Positions 32,906 to 33,710 of a stretch of 64,000 nt of DNA are shown piece by piece; positions within the stretch are counted from its first letter, which is position 1; each line of letters opens with the position of its first letter. The translations under genes and the position numbers were made by a program. Source of the DNA: Escherichia phage WPEC4. The stretch lies in sequence record PV682947.1, one strand, 5' to 3'. Below the pieces are notes generated by a model that saw only the letters and a program-made list of their open reading frames with translations, had not been told where the DNA came from and made no database searches.

Positions 32906-33038
32906 TATTTTAACTTTTTTCATTTTTAGAACAAAGGTGTCACTTTGTAGCACAGAAATAAGGCTCCTACAGCACCGTAGAGAGCCTGTTATTTTGTCCT
33001 ATACAAACCCTTGTCTTTTTCAGTTTGCATCGCTAGGA

Positions 33039-33056
33039 TTCGATCTAGGTGGGTTC
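33039..33056. repeat. Conserved 18-mer TTCGATCTAGGTGGGTTC (copy 1)
   Basis: 17/18 identical to 53753-53770; both lie at block boundaries. Confidence 0.5.
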
Positions 33057-33147
33057 CTGAAGGTCTACCAATAAGATTAAAGGTTATCTCAAATTTCCAC
33101 TACCTATTATCTCAAAAATCCCTCAAATTATTTAAACTTTTTAAGAA

Positions 33148-33335
33148 TTTACAAAAGTGAAAGTTGAAAACCAAAATTTAAAGTTTAGGAAAATTATCTT
33201 AAAATGTTAGATACAAAACAAAACTCAAAAGTCAAGGAAAATTTTAAAAATTTTGCGCGCCCACAGTATTTAAAGTTTTTTTGCTTTTACAAAAATGAAA
33301 GTACAAAAGCAAAATTTAAAGTTTACAAAAATTTA
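33148..33335. repeat. AT-rich region with two ~48-bp imperfect direct repeats
   Basis: TTTACAAAAGTGAAAGTTGAAAACCAAAATTTAAAGTTTAGGAAAATT (33148-33195) versus TTTACAAAAATGAAAGTACAAAAGCAAAATTTAAAGTTTACAAAAATTT (33287-33335); no ORF. Confidence 0.6.
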
Positions 33336-33432
33336 TGCAGGTGGGAATGAGAAGAGTTCTCATGTGGAAATGCAAATGAGAATGATTCGCATTTAAGTTT
33401 ATAAATGAGATTGATTCTTATTCAATAAGGTA

Positions 33433-33450
33433 AATGATAATCATTCTCAT
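33433..33450. promoter_or_regulatory. Fur-box-like motif AATGATAATCATTCTCAT
   Basis: About 15/16 match to the core of the Fur consensus; third copy of the ATAATnATTCTCAT motif. Confidence 0.3.
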
Positions 33451-33710
33451 TTAGAGAATGACGCGCAGGGGCGGTGTTTGTCTCGCGCTCCCGTGTCCCC
33501 TCGCCATGTAATAAGAATAACAGATCCAGCCAGGAAAGCAAGTGATTATTTTATCTTTACATTTCTTTACAAATATATAGCGCCCAGCCTACCGGCGATC
33601 AACCTTCCAACCAGTGCCCCTGGTATGTTAGCCCCGCCTTTACGCCGTGGGGTGGCGCTTCCTCTTCTGTATGTAAAACAGTATAAGCCCGATCCCTGGG
33701 CTTGTCAAGA

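Follow-up and report, generated by a model that had tools for sequence, protein, structure and literature searches.

Conserved, phased arrays of predicted Fur-binding sites beside a candidate RNA gene in lytic coliphages: a possible iron-dependent transcription boundary

Introduction

Positions 32,906 to 33,710 of the 64,000-nt stretch of Escherichia phage WPEC4 analyzed here (PV682947.1; "the window") form a large non-coding region that is common to phAPEC8-like, phi92-like and rV5-like phages. What does such a region do for the phage? A first-pass annotation, made from the letters alone, noted AT-rich repeats and a single motif resembling the Fur iron box, and suggested a replication origin, a packaging site or a control region that responds to a host regulator. 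Here, we ask which of these proposals the sequence and its relatives favor.

Results

Extent and layout of the region

The gene that ends at 32905 belongs to the Pfam NADAR family (E = 1e-35), and no conserved ORF lies in the gap downstream of it, as the first-pass annotation had proposed. The gap is indeed non-coding, but the length of about 570 bp given for it is too short; the true right edge is near 33710. A plus-strand ORF at 33478-33819, annotated in phAPEC8, was considered and rejected as a real gene because indels of 1-2 nt break its frame in relatives and its counterpart in phage Schickermooser carries the annotation "frameshift." A scan for tRNA and tmRNA genes found none.

A sequence search recovered the core of the region, the block 33433-33677, from about 346 phage records. 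Alignments were made from about 25 of these ~346 homologues, with family limits set by nhmmer on the collected loci. Comparison with related phages, recommended by the earlier annotation, shows that the module is conserved across the sampled Vequintavirinae and Stephanstirmvirinae genomes. From left to right, its elements are a bidirectional terminator, three ~69-bp repeats, four Fur boxes and a putative minus-strand RNA gene. The first pass had noticed neither the three further boxes, with their regular spacing, nor the RNA gene and promoter (33455-33708), nor the conservation of the module as a whole. The left flank contains:

32961..32987, no strand assigned: bidirectional terminator, a GC hairpin with T-runs on both sides, read from the sequence
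33085..33116, plus strand: two copies of the 9-mer TATCTCAAA (at 33085 and 33108), the only exact copies in the 64-kb window

The hairpin closes the NADAR operon on the plus strand and marks the left bound of the non-coding region; an ARNold terminator is annotated at the homologous place in phAPEC8. The 9-mer is likewise repeated, in the same orientation, in the homologous regions of tuntematon, GAP31, 4MG, KB57 and an Erwinia phage.

Two proposals about the wider setting fared less well. The transition into a GC-shifted island is weak, with a downstream GC content of 0.40-0.44 where the window averages 0.387; composition is most extreme in an AT minimum at 33105-33254 (GC 0.193). A packaging site is unlikely because the genome ends map elsewhere, to a 328-bp direct terminal repeat at window 1-329. 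Such a repeat has been reported for Schickermooser (PMC6563267), and the 329 bases that close that record share 96% identity with window 1-329. In the reference genome the gap region is internal, ~14 kb from the right end.

Four palindromes that resemble Fur boxes

The Fur-box motif held up and had been under-reported. Four palindromes, not one, start at 33346, 33375, 33404 and 33433, with a spacing of exactly 29 bp, and a further half-site adjoins the last of them (scores refer to the motif TGAKAATnATTMTCA):

33346..33366, no strand assigned: Fur-like box 1 (AATGAGAAGAGTTCTCATGTG), 12/14
33375..33395, no strand assigned: Fur-like box 2 (AATGAGAATGATTCGCATTTA), 13/14
33404..33424, no strand assigned: Fur-like box 3 (AATGAGATTGATTCTTATTCA), 12/14
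33433..33453, no strand assigned: Fur box 4 (AATGATAATCATTCTCATTTA), the strongest, 14/14 to this relaxed motif
33454..33467, no strand assigned: extra Fur half-site GAGAATGAC, repeat family D5

The core of box 4, AATGATAATCATTCTCATT (33433-33451), matches the 19-bp consensus GATAATGATAATCATTATC at 16 of 19 positions and the 7-1-7 core TGATAATnATTATCA at 13 of 14, scores expected 0.05 and 0.03 times per window, respectively, from shuffled sequence. Boxes 1-3 match the strict core at 10-11 of 14 positions, and at 12-13 once the two variable positions may be G/T and A/C. Together with box 4, the half-site forms a small palindrome (ATTCTC-ATTTA-GAGAAT). A promoter-like pair of hexamers on the plus strand flanks box 4; elsewhere under the boxes there is no core promoter.

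By BLAST, box 4 is identical at 22 of 25 positions to a box ~75-105 bp upstream of E. coli sitA, and the sit operon has an upstream fur box (PMC6969025). A BLAST search of the whole array against 5,426 E. coli genomes returned marginal short matches only. Other E. coli matches of the array lay in a prophage gap and near cbl, the latter uninformative.

Two extra copies that had been reported near 75-92 and 254-271 are present as well, inside the 328-bp direct terminal repeat:

72-95 and 251-275, no strand assigned: two strong Fur boxes within the terminal repeat (window 1-329)

The one at 256 scores 16/19 to GATAATGATAATCATTATC and 13/14 to TGATAATnATTATCA. The first-pass annotation had named common AT-rich background as the outcome that would undo its proposal, and we scanned the window with the relaxed motif at thresholds of ≥12/14 and ≥13/14 against shuffles. 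At the lower threshold there were 10 matches, compared to 2.2 ± 1.3 in shuffles; at the higher there were four, compared to 0.08. The motif therefore stands above background, and all four strong matches fall in two non-coding regions, namely the gap region and the 328-bp terminal repeat with its adjoining non-coding region, where six more boxes occur. In Schickermooser (91 kb), 10 of the 13 relaxed-motif matches are in the same two regions.

Across phages, the number of boxes varies between genera from one to six, while every full-length copy has them directly after a GC hairpin. In an alignment of more than 20 phages, the proximal box (box 4) is present in all full-length homologues, from Phapecoctavirus, Justusliebigvirus, Avunavirus, Seunavirus, Certrevirus, Mydovirus, Henunavirus and Vequintavirus; the neighboring repeats diverge in genera where this box is kept. 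The 29-bp spacing recurs in phiTE, GAP31, KB57 and tuntematon (four genomes, three further genera). Read in the direction of the putative RNA's transcription, the order of hairpin, then Fur box holds for the main copy, for the two tandem copies of rV5 and for a second, inverted copy in a Klebsiella phage, which sits ~7 kb away after the terminator of a gene cluster. T5-like phages carry similar arrays independently, and in one of them a GC hairpin adjoins the array. As judged from these alignments, the Fur boxes are under selection.

A tblastn search of the phage collection with E. coli Fur gave no Escherichia-phage record and revealed no Fur homologue in the phage groups considered here. We predict that the four boxes are binding sites for host Fur. 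This is well supported at the sequence level, and with it the earlier suggestion of a host-regulator-responsive control region, by the match to the consensus, the likeness to the sitA box, the confinement to non-coding DNA, the conserved position and 29-bp spacing, and the search that found no Fur of the phage's own. Literature searches on Fur with these phages or with T5 returned nothing relevant, and no earlier description turned up in literature that could be searched.

A candidate RNA gene on the minus strand

To the right of the array, the conserved block has the features of a non-coding RNA gene that would be read leftward:

33680..33708, minus strand: sigma-70 promoter, TTGACA (33708-33703), 17-bp spacer, TATACT (33685-33680), an 11/12 match
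33455..33673, minus strand: candidate ~215-nt non-coding RNA gene, in the conserved block 33433-33677 and adjoining the Fur array
33589..33668, minus strand: conserved structured RNA domain, with the invariant block CTACCGGCGATCnACCTT and helices Ha and Hb (alignments A1-A3)
33554..33573, minus strand: tandem motif TCTTTACAnnTCTTTACAAA, which is UUUGUAAAGA twice on this strand, kept in nearly all homologues
33458..33507, minus strand: proposed 3' terminal GC-rich hairpin, with the conserved loop GAGACAAACACC

Transcription is predicted to start near 33672. The promoter hexamers and the length of the spacer (17-18 bp) are kept in every homologue (25+), and the GC-rich sequence of the spacer varies freely. 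Within the domain, helix Ha pairs 33608-33614 with 33620-33627 and helix Hb pairs 33632-33635 with 33649-33652. The RNA may also form a pseudoknot (CGCC/GGCG with CCCC/GGGG). In the alignments, covariation supports the helices: 93.5% of cells are paired, compared to 28-48% with the partner slid, and 22 cells carry double changes, compared to 10.0 ± 2.5 in shuffles (0/500 reaching 22); the structure was derived from the same sequences in both cases.

Which strand is transcribed is a separate question. Single-sequence folding of either strand was uninformative (z-scores -1.4 to -1.6), and RNAalifold yielded weak consensus energies on both, with pairings that differed in part, so we took the strand from the conservation of the promoter and the asymmetry of G-U pairs. 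The outer stem of the terminal hairpin shows compensatory changes among homologues; read as the minus strand it has 30 G-U pairs and 15 mismatches, compared to 12 and 33 on the plus strand, and this excess of G-U favors the minus strand. In addition, one relative (L025) carries an inserted homing endonuclease on the minus strand, with a ribosome-binding site and ATG directly downstream of the RNA domain, a placement from which transcription from the RNA promoter would be expected. The plus strand is favored by one pair in the outer hairpin and by two positions adjacent to helix Hb (U-G/C-G on that strand), and on these comparisons the strand evidence is mixed.

A terminator-like hairpin on the minus strand, at 33462-33440, is followed by TATCATTTAC; this small AU hairpin overlaps box 4. 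Beyond it and the GC hairpin comes UAUCAUUUAC, which is moderately U-rich. The conserved loop sequence of the GC hairpin suggests a function beyond termination. Two more distant relatives (L125 and L099) keep the RNA domain and promoter and have no strong Fur box, indicating that the RNA gene does not need Fur.

Rfam 15 gave no family at gathering score in the whole window, and at E ≤ 10 nothing credible over 32700-34200 and nothing over 33454-33700. We also looked for likeness to the ToxI antitoxin RNA, phiTE being known for a pseudo-ToxI, and found none.

AT-rich repeats and the origin question

The reported direct repeats are present, to the left of the array, but the 48 bp assigned to them is not a repeat length; it is the distance between members of a weaker family of 33 nt. 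The best pair, 33124-33195 and 33262-33333, is 72 nt long, 82% identical and 138 bp apart, which makes three units:

33124-33192, no strand assigned: ~69-bp iteron-like direct repeat
33193-33261, no strand assigned: second ~69-bp unit, degenerate
33262-33333, no strand assigned: third ~69-bp unit

They occupy the AT minimum (33105-33254): whether GC is taken over 150 bp or 250 bp, the window reaches its lowest value here, ~4.5 SD below the mean. Direct repeats beside an AT-rich element, as in iteron-type origins, are thus present, and relatives keep the layout: phi92, GAP31, Av-05 and an Erwinia phage have, in the same place, three repeats of 63-71 nt spaced 67-76 bp, with lineage-specific sequence.

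On this anatomy the gap region is a plausible candidate for a replication origin. A phage initiator would use the ~69-bp repeats as iterons and the 19%-GC stretch would be a DNA-unwinding element, with the flanking host-type promoters supplying activating or primer transcription and Fur in an accessory or architectural role. Conservation of the triple repeat (63-72 nt, at 67-76-bp spacing) in position across genera and its divergence in sequence between lineages would be expected if the repeats co-evolve with a phage protein. Promoter-like sites are enriched (11 compared to 3.1 ± 1.9), and in Vequintavirinae an extended -10 promoter, read by eye, lies just past the Fur boxes and faces the repeats. 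The genome map of rV5 shows a large, unexplained "non-coding" box without ORFs, which may correspond to our region, and skew analysis failed to locate an origin in that phage (PMC3606486).

However, the check for DnaA boxes recommended in the first pass found no TTATCCACA with one mismatch or fewer in 32800-33800, and neither Pfam nor PHROGs identified an initiator among the neighboring proteins; these comprise an AAA+ ATPase, an endonuclease and NADAR, along with proteins whose function is unknown. In the reference genome, ~35 kb separates the region from the genes for helicase, primase and polymerase, and GC skew tracks only the direction of transcription. The lambda ori, T4 oriF and oriG, and the T7 primary origin are iteron or transcription-activated phage origins; the region resembles them in having repeats beside an extreme AT-rich stretch and promoters reading toward those repeats, and differs in that its units are ~69 bp, long for iterons, rather than 12-20 bp, with neither initiator gene nor DnaA box found. 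We know of no origin in which host Fur sites are a component. As the explanation of the locus, we regard an origin as possible but rather doubtful; it would be compatible with the gating role for Fur considered below.

Discussion

A Fur-dependent boundary

Placed between the origin-like repeats and the RNA gene, the Fur array may allow the phage to read host iron status. Going by anatomy alone, we tentatively favor a model in which the array is an iron- and Fur-dependent boundary, a roadblock-assisted terminator, between the two. The RNA would be transcribed leftward on the minus strand from its host-type sigma-70 promoter and end at the GC-rich hairpin. The moderately U-rich tail and the AU hairpin over box 4 point to a weak terminator that could need help, and iron-loaded Fur bound to the array would act as a roadblock or insulator directly behind it. 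With sufficient iron, host RNA polymerase would halt where the RNA gene ends; with little iron, Fur would leave the DNA and transcription would run on into the AT-rich repeats, which may be an origin activated by transcription or another element of early control. In this way, the early development of the phage would be tied to the iron status of the host. The boxes in the terminal repeat and the adjoining non-coding region may act in the same Fur-dependent manner.

In classical repression, Fur covers the -35/-10 region of a promoter, and we know of no established case in which Fur ends transcription as a roadblock. Repressors of the LacI, CodY and CcpA type assist termination as DNA-bound roadblocks; as with these, the protein site here would lie just downstream of a presumed polymerase stop. 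Fur clusters do occur between promoter and coding start, with extended, polymer-like footprints (Chen et al. 2007, PMC2189734). The phage palindrome is that of enterobacterial operators such as those of sitA, iucA and fhuF, and clustering of several sites is likewise seen at many targets of Fur in the host (PMC2189734). Host clusters, however, consist of overlapping sites 3 or 6 bp apart over a promoter, whereas the phage has four separate boxes in 29-bp phase with no convincing promoter under them, in lytic phage DNA between an RNA gene's terminator hairpin and an AT-rich repeat block.

T5 offers another comparison. Its injection-stop-signal region (Repeat Region 3) is also long and gene-free, with direct repeats and palindromes; it is part of a terminal repeat of ~10 kb and carries nine DRD repeats as well as DnaA boxes in pairs, and the paper describing it makes no mention of Fur or iron (Davison, bioRxiv 10.1101/866236). 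In the T5-like phage VEc33, this region has at least five Fur-like boxes beside a GC hairpin, and a segment of it can be aligned to boxes 2-3 here. The gap region, in contrast, is internal and lacks DnaA boxes, so that only the Fur-like boxes and hairpin are held in common. Moreover, the array in T5-like phages precedes a canonical terminator for rightward transcription, and we therefore do not force a single unified model. A general scheme can nevertheless be stated, though we hold it to be doubtful: phAPEC8/phi92-like, rV5-like and, independently, T5-like phages would recruit host Fur through phased arrays that directly follow GC hairpins, at the borders of transcription units and within terminal repeats, as an iron checkpoint for early development, a conditional terminator gating transcription from the RNA gene into the origin-like block.

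Other readings of the boxes

We consider it unlikely that the array is instead the operator of a Fur-repressed plus-strand promoter, with TTGAAT or GTAAAT as -35, an 18-bp spacer holding box 4 and (C/T/G)AGAAT as -10. Its rightward RNA would start at the GC hairpin, as a transcript antisense to the minus-strand RNA or an iron-starvation transcript for the downstream early genes. Box 4 does sit between -35-like and -10-like hexamers at a constant 18 bp in most relatives, the succession of -10, ~7 nt and 5' hairpin is shared with early promoters (34119, 35646, 36598 and 38309), and the two variable positions beside helix Hb read as U-G/C-G on the plus strand. Against this, the -10-like hexamer can lack the critical A at position 2 (CTGAAT in Mydovirus, CGGAAT in Erwinia phages and phiTE), the -35 in the window is poor (GTAAAT), and both hexamers fit outer Fur half-sites equally well (family D5). 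Some bases of the hairpin's outer stem would lie upstream of such a start, the wobble pairs of that stem favor the minus strand, and a secondary copy in one relative (L049) has no usable plus-strand promoter or terminator.

The boxes might also serve as a decoy. About a dozen per genome, multiplied by DNA replication, could titrate host Fur and derepress its regulon, including iron uptake and the Mn-dependent ribonucleotide reductase, to the benefit of the phage. The variable copy number outside obvious promoters would suit such a role, as would the finding that the exact 19-mer is common in viral contigs, with arrays of at least four at 14 of 118 loci; multicopy Fur boxes derepress a Fur reporter in vivo in the Fur titration assay (cited in PMC2189734). 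However, titration needs neither the fixed 29-bp phasing nor a fixed position next to the hairpin. A 2026 preprint describes early destruction of host DNA by T5-like phages and, on that account, host derepression cannot be the purpose in them. We judge a decoy quite unlikely as the principal function, although it may coexist with the other readings.

Finally, it is very improbable that the palindromes are operators of a phage-encoded regulator with a coincidental likeness to Fur sites, or mere AT-rich background: although three of the four boxes differ from the textbook form (TGAGAAT...ATTCTCA, not TGATAAT...ATTATCA) and the regular phasing resembles an operator array, the same motif occupies the same place in Escherichia, Salmonella, Klebsiella, Cronobacter, Pectobacterium and Erwinia phages, recurs in unrelated T5-like phages while adjacent phage-specific repeats diverge, and is nearly identical to a host Fur operator, and the shuffles and genome-wide scan exclude background.

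Implications

Fur boxes on phage DNA are known to us only as switches for the cargo genes of temperate phages. One such Fur-controlled cargo gene is stx1. The sitABCD operon on lambdoid coliphages likewise places a host Fur box on phage DNA, as a single operator at the promoter of one cargo operon (PMC6969025); here, arrays lie in gene-free regions and the terminal repeat of virulent phages, with no gene evidently under their control. What appears to be new is thus that widespread lytic coliphages carry conserved, phased arrays of predicted Fur boxes in their terminal repeats and in control regions free of genes. The ~215-nt RNA, absent from Rfam, is a candidate for a new phage RNA family.

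Several of these phages are used in therapy cocktails. If Fur binds, they would sense or exploit host iron status, and because the gut and infected tissue are iron-limited, their performance there could be affected. Binding would also give the rV5-like "non-coding box," and possibly the T5 injection-stop region, a testable host factor. Should the iron checkpoint prove true, obligately lytic phages would possess a host-metal-sensing switch, with a possible bearing on how the T5 injection-stop region is understood.

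Layout of the gene-free region

Its sequence places the window in a phAPEC8-like coliphage (genus Phapecoctavirus, subfamily Stephanstirmvirinae). At positions 32300-34400, phage WPEC1 matches it with 100% identity, and about 60 other genomes match it with 93-95%. A gene for a NADAR-domain protein (32363-32905) precedes the gap. From there to about 33680, the annotations of the relatives phAPEC8 and tuntematon contain no feature except a terminator and, in tuntematon, two "repeat_region" entries that overlie Fur-like boxes. The first-pass annotation had called this gap non-coding, and the relatives bear it out: neither annotates a gene there, and the reading frame of a plus-strand ORF at 33478-33819 is broken in relatives. 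This ORF, phAPEC8_00257 in several records, carries 1-2-nt indels in phi92 and other relatives, and Schickermooser, a related reference genome, annotates it in two pieces with the remark "frameshift". It overlaps the RNA gene described below and is almost certainly spurious.

Features of the gap
32961-32987: GC hairpin with T-runs on both sides
Left of the repeats: two copies of TATCTCAAA, the sole exact copies in 64 kb
33124-33195 and 33262-33333: 72-nt direct repeat pair, 82% identity, 138 bp apart
33346, 33375, 33404 and 33433 (starts): four palindromes of 19-21 bp (boxes 1-4), spaced exactly 29 bp
33454-33467: fifth half-site
33458-33700: GC-rich segment right of the palindromes

The direct repeats form three units of about 69 bp, the middle one degenerate, and sit in the GC minimum of the window (33105-33254, 19.3% GC versus a mean of 38.7%, SD 4.2%).

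The 328-bp direct terminal repeat of Phapecoctavirus, which forms the genome ends (PMC6563267), corresponds to window 1-329 (96% identity to the last 329 bases of Schickermooser), making the packaging site once proposed for the gap unlikely. Window 8.0-38.9 kb (8019-38935) is collinear with Schickermooser 112.6-143.7 kb, although the left genome end forms the start of the window. Compared with the reference genomes, the source assembly (WPEC1/2/6 type, 155-161 kb) has a different join, and the first 900 bp of the window match at 9-10 places in records of this type. The different join (window 970-8000; 1-329 versus 8019-38935) could be a rearrangement or a misassembly.

A phased array of Fur-like boxes

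Box 4, the strongest, matches the classical Fur consensus at 16 of 19 positions and the 7-1-7 core at 13 of 14; the box at 256 scores alike. In 200 Markov shuffles, such scores are expected 0.05 and 0.03 times per window, respectively. We also scanned with TGAKAATnATTMTCA, in which two variable positions are relaxed. At a threshold of at least 12/14, the window has 10 matches versus 2.2 ± 1.3 in shuffles; at 13/14 or better it has 4 versus 0.08, all in the gap region or at 77 and 256. Over 91 kb of Schickermooser, 10 of 13 matches lie at two places: 4, again spaced by 29 bp, in the homologous region and 6 in the final 1 kb of that genome. Because the matches cluster in two regions, the motif is not common AT-rich background. 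The extra copies reported at 75-92 and 254-271 both lie inside the terminal repeat, and a 1.5-kb gene-free region adjoining it holds more Fur boxes.

A BLAST search of the array against E. coli genomes returned marginal matches only. Among them is a site upstream of sitA, at a distance of about 75-105 bp, where the host box is identical to box 4 at 22 of 25 positions; the sit operon has an upstream fur box (PMC6969025). A tblastn search with E. coli Fur found no homologue in these phage groups, so any Fur-family protein binding the boxes would be the host's. A Fur-like identity of the palindromes is thus well supported at the sequence level. The consensus scores, the likeness to sitA and the conservation of the module likewise favor the earlier suggestion that the region responds to a host regulator.

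A candidate RNA gene beside box 4

Adjoining box 4, we find a candidate for an unannotated, conserved and structured RNA gene on the minus strand (33455-33708, including its own sigma-70 promoter), present in about 346 phage records. Among homologues the -35 element reads TTGACA, TTGCAA or TTGACG and the -10 element TATACT, TATATT, TATAAT or TACAAT, 17-18 bp apart. The two hexamers and the distance between them are conserved, whereas the GC-rich sequence in between varies freely, the signature of a working sigma-70 promoter. We place the start of the RNA near 33672 and its end near 33455, a length of about 215 nt; a search of Rfam found no matching family.

Base exchanges support the predicted fold. 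In helix Ha (33608-33614 with 33620-33627), A-U is replaced by G-C in 9 of 23 sequences, and distant types show additional exchanges; relatives have CCAA/UUGG or CCAG/CUGG in place of the CCCC/GGGG of helix Hb; and the hairpin stem shows G-C to C-G exchanges. In the proposed structure, itself derived from these sequences, 93.5% of cells are paired versus 28-48% with the partners slid. Double-side changes occupy 22 cells versus 10.0 ± 2.5 in shuffles, none of 500 reaching 22, again for a structure built on the same alignment.

The RNA is probably encoded on the minus strand, given the promoter, the G-U asymmetry of the outer hairpin stem (30 G-U and 15 mismatches read minus, 12 and 33 read plus) and stem bases absent from any plus-strand transcript. 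It is not certain, since one hairpin pair and two positions beside Hb favor the plus strand. The plus-strand complement GAUCnACCUUCC of the conserved single-stranded block resembles the 3' end of 16S rRNA; the minus-strand RNA therefore carries a Shine-Dalgarno-like GGAAGGUnGAUC. Downstream of the hairpin, the U content of the tail is only moderate. The left half of box 4 takes part in a small AU hairpin that is followed by UAUCAUUUAC.

To the right, at 33711-33974 (minus strand), a lone 87-aa gene of unknown function (phrog_19316) lies within a plus-strand block; it ends at a hairpin situated between the -35 and -10 elements of the RNA gene. Another, conserved hairpin motif, (A/G)TAGGGCGGCAATGGTGCCGCTC, has four plus-strand copies versus 0 expected (34119-34141, 35646-35668, 36598-36620, 38309-38331). 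Some phAPEC8 copies directly follow annotated sigma-70-type early promoters, so early transcripts seem to start with a shared 5' stem-loop.

Conservation of the module

A 286-bp stretch that begins with box 4 and reaches 33715 is matched in 346 phage records from Stephanstirmvirinae and Vequintavirinae genera, many of the matches spanning box 4 to about 33677. Our alignments took in about 25 distinct homologues, among which the order is constant: triple repeats (63-71 nt, 67-76-bp spacing, lineage-specific sequence), one to six Fur boxes, a GC hairpin with a conserved loop sequence, a tandem TCTTTACA motif, a highly conserved domain of about 80 nt, and the promoter. Four relatives, phiTE, GAP31, KB57 and tuntematon, share the 29-bp spacing between boxes. 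More distant relatives keep promoter and RNA domain without a strong Fur box, so the RNA gene predates its association with Fur.

Variants occur. In rV5 (1170-1470 of its locus) the 80-nt domain is absent and two tandem "Fur box plus hairpin" units stand instead, directly behind a minus-strand TTGACA-17-CACAAT promoter. Secondary, inverted "hairpin plus Fur box" copies lie 7-9 kb from the main one at three compared loci (L049 4305-4385, L075 1174-1315, L099 4012-4117). The L049 copy, examined in detail, comes after the terminator that closes a gene cluster; in this genome the main and the secondary unit face outward from a central block of about 7 kb. In a 145.8-kb IMG/VR contig (6146-7165 of locus L025), a 197-aa minus-strand ORF, whose N-terminus looks homing-endonuclease-like by eye, splits the RNA gene. 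Its ribosome-binding site and ATG follow the 80-nt domain, which is duplicated on each side of the insert.

Competing readings

The boxes could act as a decoy that titrates host Fur. Their copy numbers would allow this, as would the principle behind the Fur titration assay; the decoy reading leaves their fixed phasing and placement unexplained. A replication origin at the repeat block, also raised by the first-pass annotation, is plausible. The repeats and the AT minimum fit, but the search for DnaA boxes found none in the region and no initiator gene was identified nearby. On the rV5 map a large box is marked "non-coding", and skew analysis by its authors located no origin (PMC3606486).

A plus-strand promoter with box 4 inside its spacer (TTGAAT-18-CAGAAT) can be drawn, but in three lineages the crucial A of its -10 element is missing, and its hexamers can also be read as Fur half-sites. 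Were the palindromes operators of a phage regulator, their motif would hardly be expected to recur in phages that infect six host genera and also in the unrelated T5-like phages.

The T5-like VEc33 has at least five Fur-like boxes at 1000-1600 of its locus, in a gene-free region matching the T5 injection-stop region, adjoining two perfect DnaA boxes and a GC hairpin with a T-run. A paper on that region mentions DnaA and not Fur (Davison, bioRxiv 10.1101/866236). More than 120 IMG/VR contigs contain the exact 19-mer, and 14 of 118 scored loci have arrays of at least four boxes. Fur sites in these lytic phages are not described in the openly accessible literature that we searched. A prophage of E. 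coli H22 has a double Fur-like box, AAATGCAAATGATTTTCATTATCATTTAGAGAAAT, in a gene-free gap of 860 bp (L141 1500-1560), adjoining small "transporter" ORFs.

A proposed role for host Fur

In the direction of minus-strand transcription, the hairpin is always followed by ATTC and then a Fur box, in the main copy, the rV5 tandem units and the secondary inverted copies of several genomes. Because of this order, the weak tail and the poor conservation of the plus-strand promoter, we favor a role in which a weak terminator would be followed by Fur on the boxes, serving as a roadblock or an insulator. Clusters of Fur between promoter and gene, with polymer-like extended footprints, are on record (PMC2189734). 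As read from the alignments, Vequintavirinae have an extra extended -10 promoter ahead of the repeats, in the same direction. We infer that host Fur may gate the passage of transcription out of the RNA gene and into the AT-rich repeats. Our best description of the region is a conserved control module that combines an origin-like repeat block, a phased array of host Fur boxes and an unannotated small-RNA gene.
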